IMG/VR virus record: IMGVR_UViG_3300008262_000126
Coordinates: 8,321-72,320 of that record
DNA from: a virus
DNA length: 64,000 bases
Direction: 5' to 3' (one strand)
In this document: positions 2,796-62,430 of the stretch, one piece after another
How positions within the stretch are numbered: position 1 is the stretch's first letter
Layout: each line of letters starts with the position of its first letter
Notes under the pieces: model-generated
What the model was told of the DNA's origin: nothing
Databases searched by the model: none
What the model saw: the letters and a program-made list of their open reading frames with translations, nothing else
Position numbers and translations under genes: made by a program

Positions 2796-2809
2796 TTCCC
2801 CTCCAGTAA

Positions 2810-2848
2810 GTGAGAGATACTAGTACCAAAGTACACAGTATCTCTCAC
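2810..2848 (-). other. Long intergenic hairpin (terminator or processing site) between nrdJ and terS
   Basis: Inverted repeat gtgagagatact / agtatctctcac. Confidence 0.5.
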
Positions 2849-2867
2849 CAATGTATCTAATAATTTG

Positions 2868-12275: not shown

Positions 12276-12707
12276 ATGGCTATTGTTAAAGGTATTGAAG
12301 GTTATTTGAAGATTCGCAACGCAGCCGACACCGGCTACGACAATGTCAAGTTTGTCTCGCAGTGGCAGGCTAGCTTGCAGACCCAGCAGGTTGATGCAGG
12401 TCCGTTCTTGAACGACAACGGTAAGATGTACACGTTCACCACCACGAAGCGTGTGAACGGTTCTTTCCAAATCACTTTGCCAACTGCTCAGCAGGACACG
12501 CACACTCGCTTGATCAACATCTCAAACTCCGGTGAGTACATCGGTGTTTCGTTGGTCTCGAAGGGTGGCTACACCATGACCATCCCATCGGCAATCATCA
12601 CTGGTTACCAGTTGACCAACGCTGCAAACGATCAGGTTACTGTCTCGTTTGACTTCATGGACAACGGTGGTTTCTCAGTGGCTCCTGCAGCCAACGGCGA
12701 CTACTAA
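12276..12707 (+). CDS. Major tail tube protein
   Basis: MAIVKGIEGYLKI...SAIITGYQLTNAANDQVTVSFDF; AGGAG SD; followed by a terminator. Confidence 0.8.
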   Translation: MAIVKGIEGYLKIRNAADTGYDNVKFVSQWQASLQTQQVDAGPFLNDNGKMYTFTTTKRVNGSFQITLPTAQQDTHTRLINISNSGEYIGVSLVSKGGYTMTIPSAIITGYQLTNAANDQVTVSFDFMDNGGFSVAPAANGDY

Positions 12708-12796: not shown

Positions 12797-13198
12797 ATGT
12801 TAGATTACGCATTTGGGGCCGGAGAATATTACGACAACGTGGATGATTTGCTTCAAGACGATTCAATGTTAGAGGTAGATTTGACGATTAAGGGATTAAA
12901 AAAACGATTACGTATCCGCGCTCTGAGCTTTGCGCAGATGGAGAAAATTAACCAACTTTCGCAGAAGAACGGAGAAATGGACAACACCGAGTTTACGGTA
13001 AATACTATTGTAGAGGGATTGATTCGTCCAAAAATGAATTCAGCACAGGCAAAGAAACTGCTTGATGCCAACGGGGAGGTAGTACGTGAACTCGCGGAAA
13101 ATATTTGGACTCTTGGAAAAATATCAAAAGACGCTTTCGAGAAGTACCTCGAGACACTTGAAAAGGACGCCTCTATATCGGAGCCCGTCGAAGAATAA
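12797..13198 (+). CDS. Tail assembly chaperone (gpG-like)
   Basis: Between tail tube and tape measure; LRIRALS...IVEGLIRPK pattern. Confidence 0.75.
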   Translation: MLDYAFGAGEYYDNVDDLLQDDSMLEVDLTIKGLKKRLRIRALSFAQMEKINQLSQKNGEMDNTEFTVNTIVEGLIRPKMNSAQAKKLLDANGEVVRELAENIWTLGKISKDAFEKYLETLEKDASISEPVEE

Positions 13199-13214
13199 CG
13201 CAGTCGGTATTCTA

Positions 13215-13460
13215 ATGAAAACCGCCATATCCACAAAGGATGAACTTGCGATGTGGATAGATCATTTTTTAAATTCAACGCAGTATACGGCACTAAATGC
13301 GAAGAAGCTATCTAAGCTTAGTTACGCAGATATGGCCGCAATCATTGCAATAAAACAAAAATCTTTAGAAGCTAGCGTCCGCCGCAAACTTCAAAAACAA
13401 AAGAAACTGGAAGAAAAAGAGTTAGTTGAGGAGGCGGAGACGTTCAAATTATTTATGTAG
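13215..13460 (+). CDS. Second tail assembly chaperone segment (gpT-like; start uncertain, possibly reached by frameshift)
   Basis: Frame open from 13086, overlapping the chaperone gene; no clear SD before the ATG at 13215. Confidence 0.5.
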   Translation: MKTAISTKDELAMWIDHFLNSTQYTALNAKKLSKLSYADMAAIIAIKQKSLEASVRRKLQKQKKLEEKELVEEAETFKLFM

Positions 13461-13470
13461 GTGGTGCTGA

Positions 13471-16400
13471 ATGTCAGATAGAATACAACAATTAGTAGGA
13501 TTAATTCAAACGCTGCTGCTTTTAAAAAGTACTAGTGAAGAGGCTGCTAATGTTTTTGAGAAGGTTATACAAAGTAAGGCAAACGCGCATGAGGGTGGTT
13601 TAGCCGGATATTTAAAAGAAATTACAGCAGACGCTAAAACAGCTACTACAACACTAGCTATATTAGAAAAAGAGATTAAGGCAGTAAGCGCGCTTCCAGT
13701 AAGGGCAGCAGCTGACGAAACTCTTACTTCAGAAGGTACTCGTCCGGCACCCGTAGTTTCGGATGCGGCACGTAAGCGTAAGGAAGTACAAGATCGGATA
13801 GATGACGAACGAAAAGCACTTAGAACAGAGGTGCGTGGTAACAATAGGCCAACAGTTGTAAACGTACATACAGATAGGCTAAAAAATTATGAACTTTTGC
13901 TTGCCCAGCTAGACGAACAAATAGACGAGCGAGAAGACACTCTCAGGGATCTGATCAGACGAACGCAAACTAAAATGAGAACGCCGGCAAAAACCTCTCG
14001 TTCAAGTTCACCAGTTGCGGATCCTGAGTACGCAGACATGAAATGGGCGCTTACTACACCGGATACTCGTTCCGCTACAAGTTATGCTGTTACACCGAAT
14101 CGAGGAGGACGGGTCAGCGTAGCTCAATCGGGCGGAGCAAGGCCTCCCGAAAACGCCTCCGTTTCGGCAATTGTTAAATATGTGAATACTCAACTGCGTC
14201 ACGAAAATCCAGCCGAAACTCGTCCGGAAATTGCCCCGATTGTCGCCGAACTTCAAAAACTTGTAAAAGACCGAGAAGAGGCAACTGTTCCTGCGGACAA
14301 AAATAGAATAAATCAGCAAATTAAGCAAGCATTCAAAAAGATAAATCAATCTTCTGGCACAGTAAGCAACACACAGCGACAAACGGCACAAGAATCAATT
14401 ATTGCCCCAATTATTGAAGCATTGCGGGCAGTAAAATTAGACGACCCTACACTTAATGCGGCAATGTCTCCAGTAGCTAGCAGTTCTGAAATTGAGTCCG
14501 CTCTAACCAGAGCCGTTGAAATGTTGGTAACTAGACTTGAGAATGGTGCAGCAGGAAGAGTAGGAGAAACAGCTTTAAGTACTGAAGGTTTTGAGTTTTT
14601 ACGTCCGGCGGCTTTTGATCAGTTGCTGAAAAGATTGAAAACGGTAGTTGCAGAAGCAACGACTCGACCGGTAATACCAAGAAGCCGAACAGTCGATCCA
14701 GGTACTGCAGAAGAAGTAGATTCTTCTGCGTTATTTTTGGGAACTGACTTTAGCATACAAAATGCCGGAGAAGATGGTAGTCCTCAAGTAGTAGACGCTT
14801 TACGGAGTAGCCGAGTATTTCCGGGACAGGTAACCAGAATCGGTGCTAACATTTCAAAGTATATTCAATCACTCAAAGCTTCACTAAATCCTACGCGTCG
14901 TTACAGTTCGGAAGCGCAAGGCGTAGACGTTCGTGCCGGTTCCCAAGTAGTAGCCGGAAGCTCAAGCGCCGTTTTCGGTGGGGGCATGGACGCCGAAGTA
15001 CAAAAGGCGGTTGACGCGCTCTTTTCAACCGTTATGCAGGACATAGAAGAAGGAAACATAAGGCCCGCTTCGATCGCAGGGCAGACTGTAGACTTGCCTG
15101 AATCTCTTGCAAAAATGGTTGTGGAGGCGATTCAATCTAGTTCAATTTTGTCAGAACACACAACAGCTTTCGGTAGAATGGCTGGAACTCGGGGACCTAG
15201 AGGGGCGATAGTTACTGGAGATCCAGTACGAAAGTTTGTTGCTTTGTTTGCGGGCGATTTAATAAATCAATATACTTCGACAGGGGCTGTTTCAGATCAG
15301 TCCGCTAGTCGTTTTGTAGAGCAGACAGTTGCTCCGGAACAAGAACAGGAAGTTACGTTGGCAGCAACTCACGCAAAACGTTTGCGCGAAAGACTTGTTT
15401 ATCAGAGAGATCAGGCAGATCTCAGTATGGTAACTGCGGCTCCAGCAATGGCTAATCGCTACAGAACTGAGTCGGCAAAGCTTGGCAAAGAGATACAGTT
15501 ACTGGATGAGATTCTGGCTGAATCTGAAAATCCAGAAGAGGAAAAAAAGTTAGCGCAAAGACGTGGACAGATAGCACTTCCGGGCAGTAACACAGCTCCC
15601 GCGTTAACGCGAGATCAAGCACTAACTGTTTTATTTAAACAGTCTATTGGATCCATTCCTGCAACACCTGATGCGGTAGCGCCGATTATAAGCAAAGCTC
15701 AGGAAGTTTCTGCGGGACTTGCACAATCGGGACTTACAATTCCAGCAAGACCCTCTTATGGAACTAGTCCCGTACAATCGTTAGTAGAGTATATGACATC
15801 CGGTCAGTCTATGGCACTAGACCGTTATCAAACTACTCCAATTACGCAGCAGTTAGACTCAGCCGGTAAAGTGTCGTCAGGTCAGCAAAATCGAGAGTTT
15901 ATCGAAATTATAAGCGATGCTTTTGGTTTATCTCGACAGTCTGCTTCTGCGGGTAATGTCATTACTGGTTTGTATCATGGAGCACGTGCGACAGACGCCA
16001 GCGGTAAAATGCTTGAGGGAGAAGAGCTTGATCAATCGCTTGGCGGTGGCTACAGAACAAAGAAAGGTTTGCAATCAATTGTTCAAGCATCCGCAGAGAT
16101 GGGTAGTTATGGTTCCGGCGGTATTCCCTTAATTGAGTACGCTAAGTTAGCAACTTCAACCGACCTTGACGCAGAGGAGCAGAGTCTATTTCAAGAGGTG
16201 CAGGCAAAACTTCCGCATCTGCAAGCAATAGATTCTGATTCACTTAAGCAACTTGCTGAGTTAGACACGTCGATGGATCCCAAAGAGTTAATTAAACGCG
16301 TGTTGACTTTGGCAGCCCCAGCAATAAAAAATCAAATAGTTGCTTCAATTAGGCGACGAGGTGGCGCTGCCGGCATGGGAGTTGATGAAGTCACTCAAAT

Positions 16401-19400
16401 GATTTCGGATTACGAAACAGCCGGGGTTGCTCCAGCAGGGTTTCAAGATGAATTTCGCGCTTTAGCGATGTTTGATCCTGCTAACATAAACACAACCGAT
16501 GTATCTGCAGCGGTTAACCGATCGCTTTCGTTGTTCAGCAATTTATTAACTGACAACGTGCAGTCAGGCGAAGGTATGCCTCAGTTTGCAGCCCGAGTTT
16601 TAGGAAGACAGGACCGACTAGTTGGTACGGGTCCGGATGTAGCTGCAGCCGTTCCTGATCAAGGAGCGTCTTACAGCTTGATGGGCAAGGGTGCAGAAGT
16701 TGCAAATCAAGAGTCTGGTCAAGTTGTCGGTGGTACGTATGGTCGCAATGTAGAAAATCAAATAAAAATTCAAGAAGCAATGAGTGAGTTTGAGCAGTTA
16801 ACTGCTGAAATAGAGGAAATGCAGAGAAGGATAGCTTTAGCACCTCACGAAGCTGATAAAGTACTTCCAGTTATCGAGCAAAAAAACAATCAACTTAAGA
16901 TTCTTAAACAAAAACTTGATACTTACAAAGCATCAGAACCAGATCCTATTTCTCAAAAATTTGAAGCTCTTTCCACAATTGCCCAAATGGACAATATTGA
17001 CCCCGCAACAAGAAGTGCTGCAATTTACGATTTAGGCATTATGCAGGAAATTTTTAATCAAACTGGCCGATACCAGATTGACGAATCCCAAGGATACGGA
17101 ACTGGTACTCAAGAGCAACGCCTTACTAATTTGATGGCTCATAAAGCAAAGTTAGACCGTTTGCAAAAATTGAGAGAAGAACGAGCAGCGTTAGAGGCAG
17201 AATCACCTGGAGATGGTCCCGCTAAGGCAGTTGAAGCTGTAATTAAAGAATCAGACGTTGATGGAGAAATTGCAGCTGTCACAAAAGACATTAGCGACAT
17301 GAAGTCCGAAGGTACGGGGTCAGAAAAAAAAGTTGATGCTTCACCTTATGCAAATATGAATATGACGGAATTGGAAGATCTTTATCAGAGATCTTATCAA
17401 AAATATGATAGAGCTATGTCTGCTGTACCTGGAATAGAAGAGGCAACCCAGAGATACCACAACTATGAAGGCGAGGATGACGAACAAGAATTAGAAATCT
17501 TAGTAAAAGCTCTTGAAGGCGCACGGGAAAATAACCCAGAGGTTGCAAAACTGTATCAAGAGCATCAAGCAGTAAGTGACGAGTATGAACGCCGTATCAA
17601 GGCTAATATCGAAAATAACCGCGCAATACAAGAAAAATTATCTCCTGCTGAAACTTCGGTTATGGCAACTTCAGTGCCAGGAACAATAGATGAAGAAATA
17701 GCAATAGACGAAAACGCCGTACCTTTAAAAATCCCTAGAATAAATCTTACAGAAAGTAAAGATATCACTGATGATGTTACGGCTGAGGATAAGTCAGTTT
17801 TTGTACACCCGGCTACTGTGGAAGCACAACTTATAGAATCTCCGGCCTTTACGGCATTTTTAGCTGGTAAAGAAAATCAGATAATAAGTGGTAATCAAGA
17901 TCGACTAGCCATCCGTCAAGATGCGGAAACAGGTGCACTTACGGCAGCGGTGGCTGATGGAGCGAGTTCGTCTTGGTTTTCCGCGAGGTTAGCCAACATG
18001 CTAGCAGAAGAGGCTGTTAACTTACCTACAGACGAGCCTTTTACAACCGAATCAATTTTATCGAGAGTTAATAACAGATCGGCACAAGAACAAGTAGACA
18101 AAATTTTAGAATATTTTACTGACGAGGACTATCAAACCCGTTATCAATTGCAACGTATGGGTTTAGAAAAAAATGATAAATCGAAAGAAAAATTTAAAAA
18201 ATTTTTACAACCTTTTGAAGAGGCCGGTACAAGCCCAACTGTCAGAGAACTTATAGCATTTTTACACGGTGAAAAAGCTGCAAACGACCCTGCCAACATT
18301 GGCCAGGTTGCCGGTGCTACGTTTGCCGGTTATCGCAGAACAAGAAGTTCAGAAGGCTACAAGCATGAATTTCTTACTGCTGGAGATGCTTTAATAGAAT
18401 CGGCTGATTTAGGTATTGCTAAAGAGACGCTGGGCGAAAATAAAACGAATCCGGACGGAACTCCCTACACAGGACCGCAAACTGCAGGGATTATATCAAC
18501 TGAAAGTGGAATAGCTCACCCAGGAAAAGTTTTGACAATTGAGTCAAAAACTCCGGCACGTGTTTTCTTAGCGTCCGACGCATATTCACATAGCGGAGAA
18601 TTCAGCCGACTTGATCCGGAAGTTGATGCTGGAGGTTTTGTTAACTTAGGTGAAAGACTGCTTCTTGACGAGGGGGAGTTAGGTACTCGGCAAGACGACC
18701 GAAGTTTTATAGGCATTACAGGAAGCGAGCAGACGGGTCCTGTAGTAAAGACCGGCGGACTTGCTGAAGAGGGATTTACAGGATTAGAATTTACCGATCA
18801 GTTAGAAGCGTACTTAGCACAAGAAAAACGTAAATTAAGTCAGATAAATCAATTGCTGACCGACAGGCCGGATATAGATAAAGAGTTAGAAAGAGAACGT
18901 CAAGCATTACTTAAATCTGCTGAAGCCGAAGTTGAACAACAAGGACAACTTGCAGAAGAAATAACAAACACACATCGAGCGATTGCTGATGAATATGACG
19001 CGGTTGTTGACAGATTAATGAAAAACAGATACGCCGGTCCCGAAGAAAAAGCTCAAGATAGCGAAAAACATCGAAAACTGGCGCAAACGCCGGAAATGCA
19101 AGAAGTTTTAAAAGCAAGAAGAGAGGCGTTTAAAGCTGAGCAAAAGTACAAGCAGATAGTAGCCGAAAACCCGCCGACAAGTGCAGAAAAAGCTAAAGTA
19201 GTTACAGAAAACAATATTCAGGCATTAACAGAAGAGCTTACAAAAAGAGGAGTAATCTTACCGACTGAGACAACACCAACAGCGGAAACTGTGATACCGG
19301 TAACTGACGTTACATCGGTTGCTGAAGAACCAAAAAGAATTGCAGATGAGCCTGTTAAAGTCAGTGCCGAAATTAAAGCATCGCCCGAAGAGATTCAAAA

Positions 19401-22400
19401 AAGAAAAGCAGACCTAGATTTACAAATAGCCGAAGCCGCAAGAGAAGCAGCACAATCACAACAGGTTATAGAGTTAATGCAAAGACAGGCCCAGGGTTTA
19501 GACACGGAAGATAGCGACATTCGTTTTGTTGTTGACAATACAGGCATTCCGGTAAGTTACGAAGATAAGCAGGTAATTGACCGAACTTCTTTGCGTCCGC
19601 TAGTGCGGACAAAAATGACTGTTGATGACACTGGTGAATCAGGATTTGTTTCTAATTTGAATGTTAGAGATATCGTAGATCAAGCAGAAGCAGTCAAGCC
19701 AACCGCCGAGTTAATGGACGAAATCGGTAAAATGTCCGATGCCGATCTCGCTGCTGTCAAAATGCCTTCAAAGGTTCTTACAGACGAAGAGAAAGAAAAA
19801 TATCAATACTTAAGACAAGCGTCGAAACAGGCAAAAGAAGAAGCACGTAAAATCTATGAAGCTGACACTCCCCTTGGTGAAGCAATTCGAAAATATTACA
19901 GAATTACCAACGTAGAAGAGCGGGACAGAATGACGCTGGGAGACATAGGAAGCCCGGCAATTCCCGGATTAAAGGAAGCCGTAGCTGAGTACGAATTACA
20001 GCGGGGTATATCACTTGGATCAGACGAGCAAACGGGTAAGCTTGGAAAGGCGAGTGAAGCCACGCCACTACAACTCGCCGCTCGTTTATTCAGATCGTCT
20101 CGTGCAGCAGTCAGAGCGTATGAAACAGAATTTGGAGTAGAGCCTGCGTTTAGTGCGCGCGAGGTAATGGACGAGCTCTTAGCATCTTCCGCAAGAGCCG
20201 AAGTAGATAGCGCTCCAGCTGGATCTGCAGAAACAGCGGTAGCATTGGACAAAACTATTTCAAGCTTTGAAGGGGGAATACCTGAAATTAAAGGCTCTAC
20301 TGATAGAGCACCGAGAAGACCTAGAAGAGCCCCGGCTGATGTAGTTGCAGACGTTGAACAACCTTACACTGAGAATCAGTTAAAGTATGCTCGAGCACAG
20401 GTAAGGGCTTTAGCTGGCAGAACCGACCTCACAGCCGAACAAAAAAGACAATTAAGCGAAGCAAGAAAAAAATTACACAATTATGCAATGAAGCGGTTGA
20501 CGACTAATTTCGGGGACAACAAAGGCGTGATGCAAATTGCAAACGTAGTTGCCGGTTTAACTCCTCCTGATTGGGCAAAAGATGACGTGCAGAGTGCCCG
20601 TGTTTCGGCAATATCACAAGCAATGGCTGACTTAAAACCAGGACAGTTGGCGAAGTTGAAAGACGTCGATCTTAGAGACCCAGTGCAGATGGATATACTT
20701 TCAAAAGATCCGGCGCTGCAGCCAATAATGGCGTTGCTGGCTGATCAGGATATCGATGCCGCGCTTAAGTATAGATCAGGCACGACGGAATACGATGAGG
20801 CAAAAGGACTGCTATCTGCAATTGAAGGGGCAAAGAAACGCTTACCTGTTCCTGAGCCAACGGCTGGCGTACCGACTGACGCAAGGCGATTGTTTTTTGA
20901 CTTAGAAACAAACTTTGCAAAAAAACCTGAAGACCGGTTAATCTTTCAAGCAGCTACAGGCGTTAACGACGGAAAAGTCAGCGACATGTACGCAGTTCCC
21001 TTAGACTCGAGCGCTGAGGAGATAAACAGAATAGCGGTGGACCCCACAATTCCCGATGACGAGAAGAGAAAATTAATTAGAGAACTCGCTCTTAAACGAG
21101 CTGGAAAACCTCCTTTAGTTGAAGGCAGAGCCAGCGGTAACGACGTTAGTTCGGGAGTTATCGATAATCTAGTTAATGCTGCAATGTCGGGACGTCAAAT
21201 ACTTACTCAAGGCCAAATACGCGGAGATTTACAGAGTCAAATTCTAGCTGCCACTACAGTAGCAGGGCATAACATTGAAACCTTTGACTTGCCCACAGTA
21301 TACGGCGGCGAAATGGCTGTTCCGGATGCAGTAAAAGCAAAAACAGAAGACACATTGCTGATGAGTCGTAACATGTATCCAGGATCTCACACACTGAGTG
21401 ATACATATGAGGTGGTTACCGGAGATCCGCTAGTCAACGCTCACGATGCACGCGCAGACACGGAAGCAGTGCAAAGAATATTTCCTCAGGTTTCTGATCC
21501 AGAGGAACGTGCCAAAATAACAGAAGCATATTTAGCAAAACATGGAATTACAATGGATTCCGCTGTTGGTCAGCTTGTTGCTACACCTAAGATAGCAGAC
21601 ATTGCAGATACGGAAGAACGAAAGAAAGCATCTAGACAAGTGGCTGAGGCGCACGCTTTCTATCAACCTTTAGCGGACATGCAGGACTTTACACGCCGTA
21701 TCGCAAAAAGCGGCGGTAAAACAATACTGAGGGACGCTGATAAAACAGTGGCTGCTGAACAAGGCTGGTACGATATGAGTCCAGCTGCGAAAGCTAGTTT
21801 ATTCGAACGAATGAACAAAATGTTTGTAGGACATACTAAGCTCAAAGGGAAAAAAATAGAAGAACTTGACGACGCAGAGTTAGGCGAGTTTGTTAAGGAA
21901 ATAAATGCTACCTACTTAGAACCCAATGCAGATGCGGCAGTAGGTGGGGATTTCGGCGGAATGAAAAGACTGCTGGAGGAAAAAGTAGGCGGGAAAATGG
22001 CGTTCTCTGATTTTCGAACACCAGCTGAACGCCTTGCAGCCATTAAAGGTAGAACAATTGAAGATGTAATGAGCACAGCAGGTTCTTCGGGTGTTAAAGT
22101 TGGTCCTGCCATAAGTAAAGAAACAGTGGGCGATGCAATTGAAGATATATCATTAGCAACTGAAAGACCGACAAAAGTGAAAACTCCCGGATCTGCACCA
22201 TCGGTAACTGCAAGTACTTCGGACGGCGGCTCAAAAGAACCCCCAAGAGAACCACCAGTTACTTTCTCAGACGACGCGGACTCTGGCGAGCGTGGTGGTC
22301 CTGGCGGCGGTATTACTACAATAGCTTCGGCTACTATCGACACGTTGCATGCCGGTGCGGTAGAGATAAACATTCATGGTGGTAACGTTACTATAGATGC

Positions 22401-25400
22401 CAACTTCAGTGCAGGCGCTGCAGAGAAAATGCAAAAATCGTTAGTGTACATATCAAATAAAGATGGTATGAACGTAAACGGCGATGTCACTAGTGTAGGT
22501 ACGGGCGGTGGTGGCGGTGGCTATCGACGGGTGTCAGTTGCTGACAGATCTATATTAAATCAACTTGACGCAGCAAAAAACCAGATAGCTGGGCAACTTC
22601 AAACAGAAACTGACCCAGCAACACGAGAACGGTTGCGCGGTAACCTCAATGAGGTCAGCAGGCAAGCAATTCGCGCCATTATTGAGCCTAAGGTAAAAGC
22701 AATTGATAGCGAAGGTATGGAACCTTACGTCAACGAACGTTTTTACTACGGGGATGAAACAACAGATTCTAAAGAATCGTTGACATATTACAATGACGCG
22801 GTGGCACAGGCACATCAAGACCTCACTACACAACTTGAAGCTCAACAGGCAATTCCAGAAGGAACTGACGGAAGAGATGAAGAAATTCAGCGAATACAAA
22901 AGCAAATATCGTTAGTTGAGGAACTTATCAATGCGCTTACAGAACTTAATCAAGCAGAGCAGCGTGTAGGTAGTGCAACTTCAACTAGAGCAATTGTTGA
23001 TCCTACTGAAGTAAAAAAACCAGCATATCCTACGAATAATAGCGGTTATCGAAAGTTGTCTCCAGAAGATCGTGCTTCATTAGCCGTACTCGACGCTACA
23101 AAAAATTCAATAAGCGAGCAGCTGAGAACTGAGCAAGATCCAGAAGCCAGGGCAAGATTAAAAGAAACACTAACCGGTGCGAGCAAAAAAGCAATTGCAG
23201 ATATTATTAAACCGAAAGCAACAAAGCTACTTGGCTATGGTTTTGTAAATACTGTCGACGCCTTATCAACATCTCCAGAAGACTCATTAGTTAACTATAG
23301 TCAGGCGGCGCAGAGCAAACTTAGCGAATTAAACGGTAGATTGTTTATGATCGAGAGCGAGCGAGAAGATGCTCCGGGTCGTGAAGAAGCAATCGAGAGA
23401 ACTAAAAGAGAAATACAGCAAGTCCACGAGCTTATAGACGCTTTGACCGAGCTTAATCAGGCTGAGCAACGAGTTGGTGCAGCTGGTGCAACACGTAATG
23501 CTGAAAGTCCTTACGGACCAAAACCAACTGCAGATCCGCGTGCAGGAGCTAACAAATATAGAAAAGTTTCGTTTGCGGACCAGGCTTCTTTTAATGTTCT
23601 GGAATCTACAAAAAATGAGGTATCCGCAAGACTGAGAGATGAGACCGATTCAGCAGCACGTGACGCGCTGCGTCAGAGTCTTGTAAATGCAAGCGAGCGG
23701 GCTATTAACGAAGTTATTAAACCTAAAGCGGCGAAGGTATTAAATCCGACGCAGCTTGCGGCGCTTTCGGCTTTGCCAATGGGTCCTGAAGAAGCACTAG
23801 TCTCTTACAATGAAATGGCCCAGTATAATCTCAATAATCTCTCAACCGAATTGGCTACACAAGAGGCACTGCCTGAAGGTACAAGCGGAAGAGATACAGA
23901 GATTGAAAGATTAAAAGCAGAAATAGCCGCGGTTGAGGAGCTCATTAATGCACTGACCGAATTAAACGCTATAGAACAACGCGTTGGATCGGCAAGTGGT
24001 ACACGCAATGTAAACAGTCCGTACGGTACTACATCCGGAACTGGTACGGGAACATCAGCAAGTAAATACTACTCAAGAAAAGCGAAAGAAGACGAGCAGG
24101 TATTTCTACAGTTAGCGCGAAACTCATTCGATCAATCAGCGGGGTCTATGGGTATTGCGGGCGGAACAACGGCCGATTCTCGTAAATTTTTAACAGACCT
24201 TACGCGCAGTACTGCAACGACAATGATTAACAGTTCGGGAATACAAGCTCCGGGAATGGCCGCCGATATTGCAGCGATTGCAGCAACAAGTCCCGAAGTA
24301 CAGTCAGCTTATGATGATGCAGCTAAAAGTTTAACAGATTTTAGTGGAAAAGTTGGCGGTACAATTACAGACGTCGCTGACGACTTATTTACTGTAGTTT
24401 CTGGATTAGAGAAGCTGAAAGCGGCGCTTACTCCTATAGCAGCTACCTCTCCTCAAGCAGCAGCAGCTTTGGCGGTTGTTCAAACTGCTATTGACGAAAC
24501 AAGTGCGGCTGGAAAAGAACAGCGGGGAACTGCAGGTGTAATTGAAACGGACAATCGAAAGAAAGTTTCGCTTGTCGAAGAACAAATGCAAGCAGCAGCA
24601 AGTAGACCTGGATTTTTTGCCGGCGGCAGACGTGAAAGAGAAATGAGGCAGATACAAGAGGGATACATAAGAGACACCTTCGGTAAGGAAGGACTAGACG
24701 CCCTTATGCACCGAGGTAGAATAAGAGCATACACAGCAACAGGAAAACGTGTCGACATGGCGCAAGCAACTGTACAAGAGCAGCGAGACACAGTTGAACG
24801 ATTACAAAAACAAGGTATTAATATTACTGCTGAAGATATGACAGGTATAGCACGAATGTCCGGCAGAGTCGAACAGACAAAAAGATCTGCACCGATGGGC
24901 GATAAGTTATTCTATGCTGCGTCAAAAATTAGAGACACGCAGAGTGTAGTTCAAGCGGCAGTTGATACTGTTACTAGTCTAGCAAACATACCGCAAATGG
25001 CCGGAGGAATGATTCAGCAGTTTGCGAGTAGTGCTACAGGATCTAACAGGGTAATGACAACCGCAAGAGGGTTAGCACTTGATCCAGAGAATTATACAGC
25101 CGCATTAAATGCGGCTGATATGCAGAGAAAGCAATTCGGCGGCTCATTAACTTCAAATCTAGGTCAAGTTACTAGCTTTATTCCCTTGTCAAACGCGTAC
25201 GGTGTAGATATTGGAAAGTCTGTAAAAGTAGCTAGAAAATTAGCCGCGTTTGACCCAGCTCAGGGTATGGAAGGTGCTGGCATAGCAATCAAAGAATTTC
25301 TATCTGGTAACGTTTCGTCTCTCTCACGTCGATTTGAAATTAATCGATCCGCGCTTTCTAAAATTAATACCGGCGATGCAACACAAATGCTTGATAGTCT

Positions 25401-28400
25401 TGATCAGCTTCTTTCAAGTATGGGCGTTACTGATAGACTTATTGATGAGCAAGCAAACTCTATGGCGACTAAATACGACAAGATGATCGGTAATCTGGAA
25501 AGTGTGCAAATTAGCTCAACTACGGCGATAGTCGACTTTATCACTCCGGCGCTTGAATCTTTAATTGGAGAGCAGTCGTACTTTGGTAAGAATGTAAAAG
25601 AGCGTTCACTTAATACCGTGCTTAAAGAGACCATTACATCTTACGGCGATGACATATTAAGCGATCCGGAAGCTGGATTAGACAGCGTTAATATTGGCGG
25701 CAGTTTAAGCACGTTTACTTCGCAAATGGACACAATTTTAGAAGCGGCAAATAAACGAATGGCCGGAGAGGCGGGAAGGTATAATAGTGCTACTGGCGCT
25801 TCTGTATCAGTTCCTGGTTATCGTCTACTCGGTAACATGAAGCCTCAAGAACGAGCAAATATTCAATTTGATGCGCTGCTTGGGCAGGCACAAGGATTAA
25901 ATGCAACTCAAGCAATTATGCAAGCCATGCGAAATAATCCCGGAGATTACAACTCAAGTCCTGAATTTTTAAATCAACGCGAATCTTTAAAAACTAGACA
26001 AGTGAAAGTTGATCCGGTTGCTTACGCAGAAGCTTACAAAAAAGCCGAAGCTGGTTTGCTTGTAGCGGATCAAGGCGCAACAGATCTCAGCGGTCTGGGC
26101 TTGGGGTATATAAACTTTAATGCCGAGCCCGTAAAAGAAAAACCTCTTATGACTAAGGGAAGAGTAAGAAGACAAGTTGACGCTGATACGTTCGATATAG
26201 AAATACCGGGACGCAAAGACTTGGTCAGGGTTAGAACGGGTGTTATAGACGCACAGGAAAAAGGAACGCAAGATGAGCTTGCAGCCCGTGTTGGCGGTGC
26301 CGATATAATAGGAATGGACCGAGCCATGATTGGTGGGGAGTATAAACCCGGACAGGGACCGGAAATTACATTAGTAGGAACTTTAAAAAACATTGACGAG
26401 AACAATAGAGTAGTTGCTCAACTGTTAAATAGCGAGGGTAAGAATTACTCGCTTGAAATGATAGCAACCGGAAATGCATCTTCAGCTTTTATGCAAGGAC
26501 TTGATAAACAGACTATAGATAGTCTTGCATACATAGAGAAGGTAGTTGCCGATAATGGAGTAGGTCCGCAAAACAGAATAGCTAGAGATTTAAACCTTGG
26601 AGGAGCTCCCGAAATTTCAGAAGAAGTGCGTAGTTCCTATTTCTGGAATAAATATGGATTAGGTATAGGTGGATCCGCAATAGCAGGGGGAGCAGCCGGT
26701 TTAGGCGGAGCAGCGCTTGCTACCAACGCCACACTTGGTACAGCTGGATTGGCAGGCCTTGGTGGATTAGTAGCTGCTGAAATAGCCGCTGCAATAGCCC
26801 TCCCTGCCGTGGCGGCCGTGGGTTTATATGCAGGCGGGGCTTATGTGTCAGATCGGCTAGATAGTTCTCCCGAAAAAATGAGAGAATTGTATAAAATGCA
26901 AAGTGATCTAGATCGACAAGATGCAAAAATGAACATATTTAATACATTTGCAGATCAGGCAAACTTAAATGCTGAGCAAGTTGGTAAATATGTGGGTGGT
27001 GCTAAGTATCGATCTGACATGCCAAGTAAGGAAATTGTACTTACTCCGGGATTTGGACCGGGAGCTCCAATTATTCCAGGTACTGCACCAACAAAAACAG
27101 CTTTTGAAATTATGCAAGATAGCAAGGCTTCGCTAGGACAGGTTTATTTAGCAAACTACGAAGAAGCTTCCAAAAGTGGACAAGAGCGGTTTGCAACAGC
27201 CGGCGACGCAACTAAGAGAATATTAGAACGTCAGGTGTACGATCCGGTATCAGAAACCATGATGTCTTATGTTGATTACGAGGCTCAAACAATAGCGCTT
27301 AAGAAAACAGCCGATGTTGATCCGACGGCATACAGAAAATTTGATGCGATGCGCGGAGAGATTTTAAAACCTATAGGGCAAACTGGAGCACTTATTGAAA
27401 ATGAGAAATTAGTTGAGCGGGGCATTAAATATGGAACCAGGTTAGACAAACGAGCATTAGCTGAAGCCGAGGCTTCTCCATTTCGAGCAGACGTTGCAGA
27501 TTTAACTAAAAAAAGAGACGACGCGTTTAATGCAGGAGCCGTAGCTGAAGGTCAAAGATATAAAACTCAAATTGATAAAGCTAATGCTGAAATAGAAAAA
27601 ATTACGTATACAGATGCTGAATGGGATAAAATACCAGAAGCTGCGCGTTACTTAATAATGTCGGCTGAAGAAGTCGCAAATATGACTGCAGAAGAAATAA
27701 GATTTGCAGCTGATCAAACCTACCAACAAGGGCTTAATCCAGTTGACTATAAGCAAGAAGCAAAAAACTTTTTTGACGGTACAATGGACCGTAATTTTCA
27801 AAGACGGCAACAGCGTGTAGACACAACTTTAACTGCTTTTGCAAGACAGTCAATTATGGGATTAGGCGATGCGTCGGCGTTGCCTAATGACATAGCTAGA
27901 CAAGTTGTTAACTCTGGTGGAGCGGGGGTAATTGACAACACCCCAGAAGCGAGAGCTGTGCGTATGGTAGGGCGTTCAGGCTTAATGCCAAAAAATAGAG
28001 ATTCTGCGCTAGACACTGTAGCAATGCTTACCGAAGCACAAAGAGCAGCAGTAAGAGAGCAATTAGATATTGCAAGAACAAATCGTCAAGTAGCTTTAGC
28101 TAATGCACCAGAAGCTCAATTATATAAATCAGGATTTACAAATTTTGTTATGGCAATGAATAAAGCAGGAGCAACTGCAGAGGATCTTGGTCGATCTTTT
28201 ATGAACACCATGAACATGATGTCCGAAGGCAATCCTAGATACGGCTTAGACTTAGCACAGCAAATGACTGGTTTTAGCTACGAGGCTATGATCGGTATGC
28301 AACTTCGTCCGCGCACTGGTGTAGATGCCGAGGGTAATCCTATATCAAGTCTTAACGGCGCGAACGGTATGCCTTACGGGTATAATGCAAAACCCGGCGA

Positions 28401-30036
28401 GATTATTAGTGGGCCAATGGTCATGCCGTACACTTCAGGCCCTCGAGGAACAATAGCGTACTCGAGAGACATGATGGCAGTAGGTGCAAACGGTGTTCGA
28501 GAAGGCGCTTTAGGTATTGCTCCTTCGCAATGGCAGCAGTTTGTATCAAACGCTACAAACGCAAATGCCGAGTTACAAAGACGTGCAATGAGTAATGCAA
28601 TGCAAGAACGCGATTTGAATAAGAATCACCAGCGTAATCTTGAAGATATTACTCGAAACGGCATGCGTCAGTTAGAGAGCATTCATTTAAATTACACACG
28701 AAACATGCAACAGATGACCATGCAAGCAGACCTTGTTAAGGGAGCGACCCGAGCAAATGCAACAAGAAGCATTGCAATGGCTGCTATCGACCCTACAAGC
28801 AAAGCAGCTCTTAACAGCCAATACTGGGCGCAGGATATGTATTCTCAGCATCTAGGTCAAGGCGATTCGAAAAATTTCTTAAAAGACAGCGCAAACATAG
28901 CAACTCTTACAGCGATAGATCCTTCATTGTCTGCAGACATAAGCGCATTAGAGACTACAAACGCCGCGTATGAAAGCTCAGCCATAACAGACCCAAATAG
29001 GCAGAATCTGCAAGATGCAAAAAGAGCGACTATAGAACCAATTTTAACTAAGCTACGGGGCCTTATTGAAACTGAAGAAGATCCAATAAAAAAAGCCGCA
29101 CTCCAGACGGCCCTTGTTCGTTTAAGTCCAGATGCATCAAAAACAATAGCAGCTCAAACTGAAAATGACAAATGGTTAAAGCAGACGCTCGGTGATAAAA
29201 TAACTCAAAAGCAATTAGGTCAACAAATTGCTGACCAAGAGTTTCAAAATCAGTTTAGACCGTTGGATATTGCAAATGACTCAGCAAGTTTAGCTGAAGC
29301 AGGAAAATCAAAAGATCCTTTAGCTTTTCTTAATGCAAAACGTTCAAGTCTGTCAATGTACCGCGGATTTGCTCAGTCTGATATTGGTTTAGCTGAAACT
29401 ACAAATAGCTTGACAGGTTTGTTAGGAACTGGTAGTCTTTTTGAAACGAATACTACCGAAGCGTTTAAGCAAATAGCTGAAGTTGCGGGTAGCGCGACTC
29501 AGGGAGTTCTTTATAGTCTTGACGATTTTGAAACCTCGTTTCAACAACAGATGGAAGATGCTCTTAGAAACTTCGAACGACAGCGTTTGGATATGATCCA
29601 GGCCTTTGCTGATGCTGCGGTTGAAATTGCGTCAATTGTTCCTGAAGAAATGGTACCAATTATGCAAGCTACAAGTGCCTTTATGAATACGCAACGACAA
29701 GCCGAGTTACTCTGGCTGTCTGGAAGAACAGACGAAGCCAACGCACTTGCCTACCAAGGCATGCTAAAGCTTGGCGAAGTTGTGTACGGTGAAGGTAAGG
29801 GTAAAGAATATGCAGACAAATATAGTCAGAACTTTCAAGACATGGCAGACGTTGCAGCACGAGACGTTCCTCAAGGTGACTTAGGAAAGTTTGCTGTAAA
29901 GACAGAAGACGGTTGGGCATTGCTGGTAAAAGAGACTAAGTCCGCACGAGTATACGACAGGCCTCCTCCTAATAAGGATAAAGAGACTCTGAATCAAGGG
30001 AATGGTCCGTTTGTTGCACCGGGTGGCAAAGGCTAA
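13471..30036 (+). CDS. Giant tape measure protein (5521 aa) with embedded PP2C, DEDDh exonuclease and SNase-like domains
   Basis: Position after the chaperones and before the tail-tip genes; TMP signature LAAFDPAQGMEGAGIAIKEFLSGNVSSLSRRFE near 25240; Gly/Ala hydrophobic stretch at about 26650-26850; enzyme motifs listed in findings. Confidence 0.88.
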   Translation: MSDRIQQLVGLIQTLLLLKSTSEEAANVFEKVIQSKANAHEGGLAGYLKEITADAKTATTTLAILEKEIKAVSALPVRAAADETLTSEGTRPAPVVSDAARKRKEVQDRIDDERKALRTEVRGNNRPTVVNVHTDRLKNYELLLAQLDEQIDEREDTLRDLIRRTQTKMRTPAKTSRSSSPVADPEYADMKWALTTPDTRSATSYAVTPNRGGRVSVAQSGGARPPENASVSAIVKYVNTQLRHENPAETRPEIAPIVAELQKLVKDREEATVPADKNRINQQIKQAFKKINQSSGTVSNTQRQTAQESIIAPIIEALRAVKLDDPTLNAAMSPVASSSEIESALTRAVEMLVTRLENGAAGRVGETALSTEGFEFLRPAAFDQLLKRLKTVVAEATTRPVIPRSRTVDPGTAEEVDSSALFLGTDFSIQNAGEDGSPQVVDALRSSRVFPGQVTRIGANISKYIQSLKASLNPTRRYSSEAQGVDVRAGSQVVAGSSSAVFGGGMDAEVQKAVDALFSTVMQDIEEGNIRPASIAGQTVDLPESLAKMVVEAIQSSSILSEHTTAFGRMAGTRGPRGAIVTGDPVRKFVALFAGDLINQYTSTGAVSDQSASRFVEQTVAPEQEQEVTLAATHAKRLRERLVYQRDQADLSMVTAAPAMANRYRTESAKLGKEIQLLDEILAESENPEEEKKLAQRRGQIALPGSNTAPALTRDQALTVLFKQSIGSIPATPDAVAPIISKAQEVSAGLAQSGLTIPARPSYGTSPVQSLVEYMTSGQSMALDRYQTTPITQQLDSAGKVSSGQQNREFIEIISDAFGLSRQSASAGNVITGLYHGARATDASGKMLEGEELDQSLGGGYRTKKGLQSIVQASAEMGSYGSGGIPLIEYAKLATSTDLDAEEQSLFQEVQAKLPHLQAIDSDSLKQLAELDTSMDPKELIKRVLTLAAPAIKNQIVASIRRRGGAAGMGVDEVTQMISDYETAGVAPAGFQDEFRALAMFDPANINTTDVSAAVNRSLSLFSNLLTDNVQSGEGMPQFAARVLGRQDRLVGTGPDVAAAVPDQGASYSLMGKGAEVANQESGQVVGGTYGRNVENQIKIQEAMSEFEQLTAEIEEMQRRIALAPHEADKVLPVIEQKNNQLKILKQKLDTYKASEPDPISQKFEALSTIAQMDNIDPATRSAAIYDLGIMQEIFNQTGRYQIDESQGYGTGTQEQRLTNLMAHKAKLDRLQKLREERAALEAESPGDGPAKAVEAVIKESDVDGEIAAVTKDISDMKSEGTGSEKKVDASPYANMNMTELEDLYQRSYQKYDRAMSAVPGIEEATQRYHNYEGEDDEQELEILVKALEGARENNPEVAKLYQEHQAVSDEYERRIKANIENNRAIQEKLSPAETSVMATSVPGTIDEEIAIDENAVPLKIPRINLTESKDITDDVTAEDKSVFVHPATVEAQLIESPAFTAFLAGKENQIISGNQDRLAIRQDAETGALTAAVADGASSSWFSARLANMLAEEAVNLPTDEPFTTESILSRVNNRSAQEQVDKILEYFTDEDYQTRYQLQRMGLEKNDKSKEKFKKFLQPFEEAGTSPTVRELIAFLHGEKAANDPANIGQVAGATFAGYRRTRSSEGYKHEFLTAGDALIESADLGIAKETLGENKTNPDGTPYTGPQTAGIISTESGIAHPGKVLTIESKTPARVFLASDAYSHSGEFSRLDPEVDAGGFVNLGERLLLDEGELGTRQDDRSFIGITGSEQTGPVVKTGGLAEEGFTGLEFTDQLEAYLAQEKRKLSQINQLLTDRPDIDKELERERQALLKSAEAEVEQQGQLAEEITNTHRAIADEYDAVVDRLMKNRYAGPEEKAQDSEKHRKLAQTPEMQEVLKARREAFKAEQKYKQIVAENPPTSAEKAKVVTENNIQALTEELTKRGVILPTETTPTAETVIPVTDVTSVAEEPKRIADEPVKVSAEIKASPEEIQKRKADLDLQIAEAAREAAQSQQVIELMQRQAQGLDTEDSDIRFVVDNTGIPVSYEDKQVIDRTSLRPLVRTKMTVDDTGESGFVSNLNVRDIVDQAEAVKPTAELMDEIGKMSDADLAAVKMPSKVLTDEEKEKYQYLRQASKQAKEEARKIYEADTPLGEAIRKYYRITNVEERDRMTLGDIGSPAIPGLKEAVAEYELQRGISLGSDEQTGKLGKASEATPLQLAARLFRSSRAAVRAYETEFGVEPAFSAREVMDELLASSARAEVDSAPAGSAETAVALDKTISSFEGGIPEIKGSTDRAPRRPRRAPADVVADVEQPYTENQLKYARAQVRALAGRTDLTAEQKRQLSEARKKLHNYAMKRLTTNFGDNKGVMQIANVVAGLTPPDWAKDDVQSARVSAISQAMADLKPGQLAKLKDVDLRDPVQMDILSKDPALQPIMALLADQDIDAALKYRSGTTEYDEAKGLLSAIEGAKKRLPVPEPTAGVPTDARRLFFDLETNFAKKPEDRLIFQAATGVNDGKVSDMYAVPLDSSAEEINRIAVDPTIPDDEKRKLIRELALKRAGKPPLVEGRASGNDVSSGVIDNLVNAAMSGRQILTQGQIRGDLQSQILAATTVAGHNIETFDLPTVYGGEMAVPDAVKAKTEDTLLMSRNMYPGSHTLSDTYEVVTGDPLVNAHDARADTEAVQRIFPQVSDPEERAKITEAYLAKHGITMDSAVGQLVATPKIADIADTEERKKASRQVAEAHAFYQPLADMQDFTRRIAKSGGKTILRDADKTVAAEQGWYDMSPAAKASLFERMNKMFVGHTKLKGKKIEELDDAELGEFVKEINATYLEPNADAAVGGDFGGMKRLLEEKVGGKMAFSDFRTPAERLAAIKGRTIEDVMSTAGSSGVKVGPAISKETVGDAIEDISLATERPTKVKTPGSAPSVTASTSDGGSKEPPREPPVTFSDDADSGERGGPGGGITTIASATIDTLHAGAVEINIHGGNVTIDANFSAGAAEKMQKSLVYISNKDGMNVNGDVTSVGTGGGGGGYRRVSVADRSILNQLDAAKNQIAGQLQTETDPATRERLRGNLNEVSRQAIRAIIEPKVKAIDSEGMEPYVNERFYYGDETTDSKESLTYYNDAVAQAHQDLTTQLEAQQAIPEGTDGRDEEIQRIQKQISLVEELINALTELNQAEQRVGSATSTRAIVDPTEVKKPAYPTNNSGYRKLSPEDRASLAVLDATKNSISEQLRTEQDPEARARLKETLTGASKKAIADIIKPKATKLLGYGFVNTVDALSTSPEDSLVNYSQAAQSKLSELNGRLFMIESEREDAPGREEAIERTKREIQQVHELIDALTELNQAEQRVGAAGATRNAESPYGPKPTADPRAGANKYRKVSFADQASFNVLESTKNEVSARLRDETDSAARDALRQSLVNASERAINEVIKPKAAKVLNPTQLAALSALPMGPEEALVSYNEMAQYNLNNLSTELATQEALPEGTSGRDTEIERLKAEIAAVEELINALTELNAIEQRVGSASGTRNVNSPYGTTSGTGTGTSASKYYSRKAKEDEQVFLQLARNSFDQSAGSMGIAGGTTADSRKFLTDLTRSTATTMINSSGIQAPGMAADIAAIAATSPEVQSAYDDAAKSLTDFSGKVGGTITDVADDLFTVVSGLEKLKAALTPIAATSPQAAAALAVVQTAIDETSAAGKEQRGTAGVIETDNRKKVSLVEEQMQAAASRPGFFAGGRREREMRQIQEGYIRDTFGKEGLDALMHRGRIRAYTATGKRVDMAQATVQEQRDTVERLQKQGINITAEDMTGIARMSGRVEQTKRSAPMGDKLFYAASKIRDTQSVVQAAVDTVTSLANIPQMAGGMIQQFASSATGSNRVMTTARGLALDPENYTAALNAADMQRKQFGGSLTSNLGQVTSFIPLSNAYGVDIGKSVKVARKLAAFDPAQGMEGAGIAIKEFLSGNVSSLSRRFEINRSALSKINTGDATQMLDSLDQLLSSMGVTDRLIDEQANSMATKYDKMIGNLESVQISSTTAIVDFITPALESLIGEQSYFGKNVKERSLNTVLKETITSYGDDILSDPEAGLDSVNIGGSLSTFTSQMDTILEAANKRMAGEAGRYNSATGASVSVPGYRLLGNMKPQERANIQFDALLGQAQGLNATQAIMQAMRNNPGDYNSSPEFLNQRESLKTRQVKVDPVAYAEAYKKAEAGLLVADQGATDLSGLGLGYINFNAEPVKEKPLMTKGRVRRQVDADTFDIEIPGRKDLVRVRTGVIDAQEKGTQDELAARVGGADIIGMDRAMIGGEYKPGQGPEITLVGTLKNIDENNRVVAQLLNSEGKNYSLEMIATGNASSAFMQGLDKQTIDSLAYIEKVVADNGVGPQNRIARDLNLGGAPEISEEVRSSYFWNKYGLGIGGSAIAGGAAGLGGAALATNATLGTAGLAGLGGLVAAEIAAAIALPAVAAVGLYAGGAYVSDRLDSSPEKMRELYKMQSDLDRQDAKMNIFNTFADQANLNAEQVGKYVGGAKYRSDMPSKEIVLTPGFGPGAPIIPGTAPTKTAFEIMQDSKASLGQVYLANYEEASKSGQERFATAGDATKRILERQVYDPVSETMMSYVDYEAQTIALKKTADVDPTAYRKFDAMRGEILKPIGQTGALIENEKLVERGIKYGTRLDKRALAEAEASPFRADVADLTKKRDDAFNAGAVAEGQRYKTQIDKANAEIEKITYTDAEWDKIPEAARYLIMSAEEVANMTAEEIRFAADQTYQQGLNPVDYKQEAKNFFDGTMDRNFQRRQQRVDTTLTAFARQSIMGLGDASALPNDIARQVVNSGGAGVIDNTPEARAVRMVGRSGLMPKNRDSALDTVAMLTEAQRAAVREQLDIARTNRQVALANAPEAQLYKSGFTNFVMAMNKAGATAEDLGRSFMNTMNMMSEGNPRYGLDLAQQMTGFSYEAMIGMQLRPRTGVDAEGNPISSLNGANGMPYGYNAKPGEIISGPMVMPYTSGPRGTIAYSRDMMAVGANGVREGALGIAPSQWQQFVSNATNANAELQRRAMSNAMQERDLNKNHQRNLEDITRNGMRQLESIHLNYTRNMQQMTMQADLVKGATRANATRSIAMAAIDPTSKAALNSQYWAQDMYSQHLGQGDSKNFLKDSANIATLTAIDPSLSADISALETTNAAYESSAITDPNRQNLQDAKRATIEPILTKLRGLIETEEDPIKKAALQTALVRLSPDASKTIAAQTENDKWLKQTLGDKITQKQLGQQIADQEFQNQFRPLDIANDSASLAEAGKSKDPLAFLNAKRSSLSMYRGFAQSDIGLAETTNSLTGLLGTGSLFETNTTEAFKQIAEVAGSATQGVLYSLDDFETSFQQQMEDALRNFERQRLDMIQAFADAAVEIASIVPEEMVPIMQATSAFMNTQRQAELLWLSGRTDEANALAYQGMLKLGEVVYGEGKGKEYADKYSQNFQDMADVAARDVPQGDLGKFAVKTEDGWALLVKETKSARVYDRPPPNKDKETLNQGNGPFVAPGGKG
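22522..24010 (+). repeat. Three tandem 170-175-aa repeats inside the TMP
   Basis: Units start YRRVS/YRKLS/YRKVS at 22522, 23047 and 23557 and end ELI(N/D)ALTELN(QA/AI)EQRVG. Confidence 0.85.
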
Positions 30037-62365: not shown

Positions 62366-62430
62366 AGTCTTTCTCCTTGCACTTGCATTACTTGCCCACA
62401 TCCGACGCAGGTGGGAGTTGCCAGACATTC

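Follow-up and report, generated by a model that had tools for sequence, protein, structure and literature searches.

What is a domain resembling a PP2C/PPM-type serine/threonine phosphatase doing inside the tape measure protein of a phage, and is it such a domain at all? The question is raised by a stretch of 64,000 nucleotides of viral DNA, referred to here as the window, which comprises bases 8321-72320 of the 72,320-bp IMG/VR virus record IMGVR_UViG_3300008262_000126, rated 95% complete. The window contains a giant open reading frame (ORF; 13471..30036, + strand), which, from the ORF list and its translation, encodes 5,521 amino acids in a single reading frame, occupies about 23% of the genome and stands at the position of a tape measure gene. 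An initial annotation of the same DNA had placed a PPM domain within this protein and suggested that, delivered with the virion, it could reverse kinase-triggered abortive infection. We report that structure prediction confirms a PPM/PP2C-fold domain with conserved catalytic acidic residues in the giant ORF, and we consider what such a domain might do for the virus.

The fold was predicted with AlphaFold2 for residues 1434-1775 (17770-18795), giving a model with a mean pLDDT of 75.9 and a pTM of 0.80, in which model residues 20-330 are folded. This places the domain at approximately 17827..18759 on the + strand, or residues 1453-1763, an assignment that draws on the model, its structural matches, a weak match to the Pfam family PP2C_2 and a protein-language-model look-up. 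In an unfiltered structural search, independent of Foldseek, against 48,161 representative chains, 37 chains reached a Z score of at least 8; these occupied ranks 1-37 (Z 17.4-9.7) and all belong to the PPM/PP2C family by title, two of the titles (4oic and 4iip) being uninformative, while the next chain in rank was Taspase1, with a Z of 6.9. RsbX and Lem3 both scored 17.4 in this search, the RsbX alignment covering 187 of its 199 residues with an rmsd of 2.8 and 16% identity; when the best 999 chains from Foldseek were re-aligned, Lem3, with a Z of 17.8 over 222 aligned residues, tied with RsbX at 17.4. Foldseek itself returned 73 matches in the PDB at E ≤ 1e-3, of which all among the matches listed are PPMs, with RsbX the best (8.5e-7), and the language-model look-up returned PP2C_2 clusters for 24 of 30 matches, at 0.95-0.96. 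The proposal of a PPM fold within the giant protein is therefore borne out by the model, which gives that fold, defined by two antiparallel sheets in a central beta-sandwich with flanking helices.

The model departs from a minimal PPM in two places. One is a helical bundle of some 90 residues, assigned from the secondary structure of the model (model residues 93-179; 18046..18306, + strand) and inserted between motif 2 and the core strand that follows it, which carries the GAT sequence; the other is a low-confidence loop at model residues 223-238, in a flap-like position. The helical insertion after motif 2 also explains why alignments to sequence profiles break there.

All six motif strings quoted in the initial annotation occur in its order, share the frame of one ORF and fall inside 17830-18720 on the + strand. 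Motif 1, GNQDRLAI (17890..17913), contains Asp1477, a putative metal ligand, and falls within the alignment to PP2C_2, and motif 2, AAVADGASSS (17944..17973), contains Asp1496 and Gly1497 and is central to the match with cellular PP2C_2 proteins that hhalign gave, described below. Beyond the helical insertion, the GATFAG strand (18313-18330) and TAGDA (18376-18390), together 18313..18390, are what we take to be motifs 5 and 6 in the Bork numbering, where the initial annotation had TAGDA as motif 5; the latter supplies the Gly-Asp pair 1638-1639, Asp1639 being a possible ligand of a third metal. Motif 8, VFLASDAY (18562..18585), ends model strand 265-268 and contains Asp1703, while motif 11, RQDDRSFI (18688..18711), with Asp1742 and Asp1743, precedes model strand 313-316. 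The motif aspartates sit at the ends of model strands, the placement to be expected of PPM motifs.

Statements on invariance were confined to an alignment (A2) of the four giant homologs only, which are 25-73% identical to the window protein. The five-sequence alignment used for the model (A1) was left aside for this purpose; it placed the C-terminal half of a free-standing homolog (P0005) doubtfully, the motif 8 of that protein being probably its YLMTD stretch. Of the 342 positions in the first sequence of A2, only 50 are invariant, and these include Asp1477, Asp1496-Gly1497, the Ala-Thr of the GAT strand, Gly1638-Asp1639, the Leu-Ala-Ser-Asp1703-Ala of motif 8 and the Asp1742-Asp1743-Arg-Ser of motif 11. 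The putative metal-binding aspartates are therefore retained, as had been claimed. According to PMC10115812, the M1 and M2 metals of PPM enzymes are held by four aspartates and a glycine carbonyl, with a fifth aspartate holding a third metal; the motif 1 and motif 2 ligands are D38, D60 and G61 in PPM1A and D82, D105 and G106 in Lem3, and the motif 8 and motif 11 aspartates are D239 and D282 in PPM1A and D254 and D394 in Lem3. The five conserved aspartate positions of the phage domain fit this pattern in number and order, and the motif 1 aspartate and motif 2 Asp-Gly are, in addition, tied to the PPM family by the alignments to PP2C_2 (profile positions 12-75) and by hhalign.

Relatives of the domain are few. 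An exhaustive HMMER search of 1.84 billion representative sequences returned three proteins at E ≤ 1e-3, a 429-aa fragment (P0003), a protein of 5,424 aa (P0004) and the free-standing 319-aa protein P0005; two further giants, P0007 (6,477 aa, 72% identical in the domain) and P0008 (6,357 aa, 45%), were obtained when proteins of 3,036-9,662 aa were searched with a word index. The fragment was considered as a sign that the position of the domain varies, and this was rejected, its N-terminus being unlike those of the giants. The homologs of 5,424-6,477 aa have an architecture in common with the giant ORF, and the PPM domain is present in all four giant homologs found, which come from a small number of records (two IMG/VR contigs, one metagenome contig and sequence clusters). 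No match was obtained when the domain was compared by tblastn with 50,697 phage records, nor when the N-terminal 1,250 aa of the giant ORF were compared with the same records, and phmmer of the domain against PDB sequences gave no match at E ≤ 10. The sole match of a sequence profile in the PDB was again Lem3, at a weak E of 0.07, with the TAGDA region aligned to an 'IGDG' stretch of Lem3.

The link to cellular proteins runs through P0005, which scores 21.9 bits against PP2C_2, the alignment spanning profile positions 11-174. Its relatives are free-standing proteins of about 240 aa in Thiotrichaceae or Beggiatoa-like metagenome-assembled genomes (L006-L010), four of the five members of this family score above the Pfam cutoff for PP2C_2, and no relatives of P0005 were found in viral contigs. 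Alignment of the phage domains with this cellular family by hhalign gave a probability of 94.8% and an E of 5e-8, over only 49 columns around motif 2, and it is in the context of motif 2 that the Thiotrichaceae family comes closest, among cellular proteins, to the phage domain; the resemblance could be a clue to where the domain came from or to the host of the virus. P0005 was also tried as a sequence bridge to a PPM of solved structure and rejected, the sole match being an irrelevant profilin at an E of 0.6, and a search with the A1 profile among proteins of 175-676 aa passed none of the 7,999 candidates scored.

We compared the giant ORF codon by codon with its homolog in L003, the contig encoding P0007, by the Nei-Gojobori method. 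Within the PPM domain, amino acid identity is 73.7%, dS is 0.67 and dN/dS is 0.30, against 93.7%, 0.14 and 0.24 for the N-terminal residues 1-1295; the linker after the PPM domain has values of 48.9%, 0.63 and 0.68, and residues 1943-3000 have values of 82%, 0.38 and 0.32. The PPM domain is under purifying selection, as is the rest of the protein, and its approximately fivefold higher synonymous divergence points to a history of its own; exchange through recombination, and not simply rapid evolution, has shaped the central region. A striking mosaic within the gene is also apparent further downstream, where residues 3001-4000 (22471..25470, + strand), which include three tandem repeats, are identical in protein sequence to L003 (100% identity, dS 0.014, dN of 0 and hence dN/dS 0), compared with dS values of 0.14-0.67 elsewhere.

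Is the protein that carries the domain a tape measure protein? The gene order runs from a capsid-like gene through a tube-like gene and an overlapping ORF pair to the giant ORF, large tail genes and a fibre-assembly gene, and the same order is found in the 45%-identical phage L014, which encodes P0008. The tube-like gene (12276..12707, + strand, 143 aa) is a candidate for the major tail protein, a lead taken from its nearest Atlas cluster, in which 25% of the members carry Phage_tail_2. The overlapping pair (12797..13460, + strand, made up of 12797..13198 and 13086..13460) is chaperone-like in arrangement, its first ORF weakly matching the 'XkdN-like' phrog_389 at an E of 2e-4; the second ORF lies in the +1 frame in the window and likewise in L014, where the pair is at 2436..3099. 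A canonical -1 slippery heptamer was not seen in the overlap; a programmed shift of +1 or -2 is possible. Within the giant ORF itself, residues 3902-4005 (25174..25485, + strand) match the 'tail tape measure protein' of phage D6E by tblastn (35.6% identity over 104 residues, E 2e-4), there is a match to the tape measure family phrog_305 at an E of 9.4e-4, and the only strongly hydrophobic segment in a Kyte-Doolittle scan, which is transmembrane-like, lies at residues 4424-4459 (26740..26847, + strand). No tape measure family of Pfam or NCBIfam matched the giant ORF. Because the D6E-like stretch starts at about residue 3900, we read the C-terminal 1,600 or so residues as the canonical tape measure module and the PPM domain as part of a long N-terminal cargo extension of approximately 3,900 residues. 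The conserved gene order thus favours the placement of the domain within a tape measure protein, as the initial annotation had it, and the homology to D6E and phrog_305 is weak; the single hydrophobic segment and three tandem repeats, described below, also enter into this reading.

The PPM domain is not the only enzymatic module of the giant ORF. A DEDDh (DnaQ-like) exonuclease domain follows it (20833..21570, + strand), recognized from the motifs FFDLET, HNIETFD and HDARAD, from phrog_192 (E 6.6e-8) and from weak PDB and NCBIfam matches, and all three motifs are kept in four of four giant homologs. The three tandem repeats, each some 175 aa long and seen by eye, start at residues 3018, 3193 and 3363 (22522..24090, + strand). 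Towards the C-terminus lies a candidate SNase/thermonuclease-like stretch (26113..26580, + strand), which scores 18.1 bits against the Pfam SNase cutoff of 21 and 20.2 bits in L014, and whose homolog bears the JGI label 'endonuclease YncB'; its AlphaFold2 model, built from a two-sequence alignment with a mean pLDDT of 50.9, was too poor for a fold search. The order of blocks is common to the four giants: an N-terminal block, a variable centre with the PPM domain, the DEDDh domain, the repeats, the tape measure core, the SNase-like stretch and a C-terminal part. By segment-wise BLAST, P0008 too has the C-terminal module. In all four lineages the giant ORF is uninterrupted. Two of the homologs carry additions near the PPM domain: P0007 (L003) has about 1,060 extra residues beside it that include a NUDIX domain (L003:11570-12769) scoring 28.6 bits, above the cutoff of 21.1, and in P0008 (L014) the main PPM domain is preceded, some 600 residues upstream, by another PPM-like copy of greater divergence (L014:8057-9079).

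The most conserved block across the four homologs comprises residues 500-1250 or thereabouts (14968..17220, + strand), for which no family match was found. We considered an RNA polymerase like that of the P23-45 protein gp96 in the N-terminal region and rejected it, since no DxDxD motif conserved among the four homologs was found there.

The remainder of the window encodes portal-like and capsid-like proteins, the latter 22-23% identical to proteins of the Bacillus phage Basilisk group, small head-tail proteins, a class II ribonucleotide reductase and a replication module of primase, DnaB, PolA and RecA. The giant ORF is followed by four large unannotated genes and then by a tail-fibre assembly gene (PF16778, 1.3e-16). 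The gene for the terminase large subunit (2..2203, - strand) is split by an intein-like splicing domain (PF14890, 1.1e-7, under the cutoff). A free-standing gene at 61505..62428 (- strand) encodes a 307-aa protein that combines ArdC-N (7e-18) with an MPTase-PolyVal zincin peptidase (4.4e-36).

Since the PPM domain is apparently intact, it is probable that a ready-made enzyme enters the host with the virus. We favour, with a confidence that stands about midway between belief and doubt, a reading in which an uncultured siphovirus-like phage has the giant ORF as its tape measure, and the extension of this protein bears a divergent, PP2C_2-related, metal-dependent PPM phosphoesterase delivered by the virion. 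The fold, the conservation of catalytic residues, the purifying selection, the position of the gene and the multi-enzyme architecture are results of the analysis; that the enzyme is active, rides in the virion, is delivered and acts on such a target is inferred. That the extension carries cargo accords with the DEDDh domain in four of four homologs, the NUDIX domain next to the PPM in L003, the second PPM-like copy in P0008 and the mosaic of dS along the gene. Within the tape measure, the domain would become part of the virion, would leave the tail along with that protein at infection and, before the expression of any phage gene, could strip phosphate-linked groups from host signalling or defence proteins. 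Such delivery is made plausible by analogy with the Thermus phage P23-45, in which an enzyme fused to the tape measure is borne by the virion and active on infection.

Several observations weigh against this reading and should be set beside it. The AlphaFold2 model was built on the A1 alignment of only five sequences. The search against PP2C_2 profiles that the initial annotation had proposed did return a match to PF13672 (E 0.0032), but its 17.5 bits (17.9 in the search of the genome) lie under the curated cutoff of 24 and it spans profile positions 12-75 of 209; family membership thus stands as a match and falls short at the threshold, and we regard the domain as a divergent offshoot of PP2C_2 rather than a textbook member. 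NCBIfam gave no match to the domain. The equivalence of motifs 8 and 11 is drawn solely from order, sequence pattern and position at model strands, because the 49 columns aligned by hhalign around motif 2 do not extend to them. Furthermore, a conserved Arg or Lys four to five residues before the motif 1 aspartate, mapped by sequence offset only, was not found in the four homologs, where the fifth and fourth positions before that aspartate are Ile-Ser, Ala-Lys, Leu-Arg and Gly-Tyr. As for the carrier, its identity as a tape measure is positional, with weak homology, no PHROGs family having matched 2,000-aa pieces of the giant ORF at E ≤ 0.01, and by our own reasoning a folded domain of 30 kDa would not obviously fit the lumen of a tail tube.

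This last consideration bears on whether the domain is delivered at all. It could instead act for the phage in the producing cell, by controlling assembly or dephosphorylating phage proteins, or be removed before or during tail assembly: a folded PPM in the middle of a tape measure has, as we see it, no obvious place in the tail tube, and the separate zincin peptidase gene at 61505..62428 could in principle process large proteins. We judge this improbable, as the N-terminal enzyme of P23-45 stays on the full-size tape measure in virions (PMC10770324), the uninterrupted ORF has been kept in four of four lineages, and no cleavage evidence of any kind was found. It is also conceivable that the module is catalytically dead, a structural or binding element kept for assembly or receptor contact in the manner of the pseudophosphatase TAB1, which is itself among the structural matches (Z 13.4), and the sequence is indeed too divergent for family thresholds. 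However, every acidic motif position is invariant down to 25% identity, in an alignment with only 50 of 342 positions invariant overall, and the dN/dS of 0.30 likewise argues against a dead module, which we consider very unlikely.

If the domain is an active enzyme, the fold, with its tie between RsbX and Lem3, cannot separate a phospho-Ser/Thr phosphatase from a PPM that removes a phosphodiester-linked group. A phosphodiesterase of the Lem3 and SidD kind, acting on phosphocholine, AMP or another nucleotidyl group rather than plain phosphate, would agree with Lem3 being the top structural match with the longest alignment and the one PDB protein reached by a sequence profile. Canonical PP2Cs bind the substrate phosphate through a conserved Arg before motif 1, and it has been proposed that replacement of this Arg by Leu or Phe decides specificity (both from PMC10115812), so that the lack of a conserved Arg at the corresponding positions of the four homologs points the same way. 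Nevertheless, we regard this assignment as doubtful: RsbX, a plain phospho-Ser/Thr phosphatase, ties with Lem3 and has the better rmsd of 2.8, the specificity position was mapped by sequence offset alone, and the absence of the Arg at that offset is not diagnostic, because the cellular PP2C_2 relatives lack it too. The counter-defence role put forward in the initial annotation, in which the delivered PPM dephosphorylates the targets of host Ser/Thr kinase abortive-infection systems (Stk2-like or kinase toxin-antitoxin) and so rescues infection, is compatible with these data and to our mind unlikely. Defence systems built on kinases are known, one of them being the KKP module, whose kinases are neutralised by a phosphatase (bioRxiv 10.1101/2022.09.05.506569); the pattern of the locus also resembles that of conflict genes, with domain identity of 73.7% against 93.7% in the flanks, a separate history (dS 0.67 versus 0.14), a duplicated PPM domain in one lineage and a neighbouring NUDIX domain in another. 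Against this, nothing ties the domain to a kinase, its dN/dS of 0.30 is that of ordinary purifying rather than diversifying selection, and the tie between RsbX and Lem3 does not single out a phospho-Ser/Thr phosphatase. A kinase or FHA partner was not seen among the ORFs scanned, which were 54 of the 83 window ORFs of at least 100 aa and 11 of the 31 ORFs of at least 70 aa in the other 8.4 kb, those left out being mostly overlapping or antisense frames. A broader version, in which the tape measure serves as a tool kit whose PPM and DEDDh domains (with NUDIX in relatives) enter ahead of the DNA and erase phosphorylation-based alarm or abortive-infection signalling before transcription begins, seems to us a long shot of much the same order, although, if true, it would provide the first virion-delivered protein phosphatase serving as a phage counter-defence.

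Returning to the preferred reading of a virion-delivered PPM phosphoesterase, an active and delivered enzyme would add protein dephosphorylation to the immediate-early tools that phages bring with them and give phosphorylation-based defence a natural antagonist. The family further provides a compact and well-defined construct, some 340 residues long, in which five aspartates are candidates for mutation.

How does this arrangement compare with known systems? Few enzymes fused to tape measures are known, namely muralytic domains and the virion RNA polymerase of P23-45. In the literature that we searched, a PPM/PP2C domain is nowhere described as part of a tape measure or any other virion protein; in one of the papers retrieved the phosphatase is encoded as a gene of its own. 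In a viral structure library 15 matches to the PPM fold were found at E ≤ 1e-3, which, by their names, are 12 proteins of giant viruses or entomopoxviruses, two unnamed proteins and one phage protein of 271 aa.

Among enzymes, the phage domain resembles the PP2C_2 family (PF13672) in fold, in motif order and in the context of motif 2 (ADGA-S/T-x-S-[WF]-[FY]-S ... A-x-[LM]-L), and differs from it in its score, 17.5 bits against the cutoff of 24, in the helical insertion (about 90 residues) that follows motif 2, in its long flap-like region and in being embedded in a protein of 5,521 aa where the PP2C_2 proteins compared here are free-standing. The best-fitting PPM core is that of RsbX (PDB 3w40), the feedback phosphatase of the Bacillus subtilis stressosome, which is minimal and without a canonical flap; RsbX, however, with its 199 residues, regulates a partner-switching cascade in the cytoplasm, and nothing links the phage domain to STAS-domain proteins. 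Legionella Lem3 (8anp/8alk), the tied top structural match, shares the extra helices around the core, and its metal site of four aspartates and a glycine, plus a fifth aspartate for a third metal (PMC10115812), is a pattern that the five conserved aspartate positions of the phage domain fit. Lem3 and SidD are PPM-fold effectors that remove phosphocholine or AMP from Rab1, and so provide a likeness in kind, as delivered effectors that reverse a protein modification. Identity to Lem3 is only 11%, and Lem3 is secreted into eukaryotic cells by a bacterial type IV system, not by a phage tail.

As regards the carrier, the polyvalent proteins of Iyer et al. (2017, PMC5512222) are likewise giant multi-enzyme polypeptides, proposed to enter with the DNA and to act early against defences, and the giant ORF, like them, has at least two unrelated enzymatic domains, the PPM and the DEDDh exonuclease. 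Their hallmark MPTase-PolyVal domain was not found by Pfam inside the giant ORF and is instead encoded by the separate gene at 61505..62428; the words 'PP2C', 'phosphatase' and 'tape measure' are absent from the main text of that paper. The Sle1-type effectors of actinobacterial contractile injection systems (PMC13277306) also combine a tape-measure-related scaffold with exchangeable functional domains, but they are cargo of a bacterial injection system and their functional domains are different. The closest parallel to a tape measure with a fused enzyme remains gp96 of the Thermus phage P23-45, a tape measure of 5,002 aa compared with 5,521 aa here, with a globular enzyme in its N-terminal part. 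According to the published work (Nat Commun 2024, PMC10770324), its N-terminal 1,200-1,540 residues are an active RNA polymerase that transcribes the pre-early genes, gp96 is present in virions as the full-size protein, and the polymerase is proposed to work at the pore of the ejected tape measure. The two differ in that the gp96 cargo sits at the extreme N-terminus and is a two-barrel RNA polymerase, whereas here a PPM domain lies at residues 1453-1763 or so and is accompanied by a DEDDh exonuclease, and in that virion presence and activity have been demonstrated for gp96, whereas the present protein is known from its sequence and a model. Enzyme cargo on a tape measure is already known from P23-45; a cargo of the PPM type is new within the literature searched.

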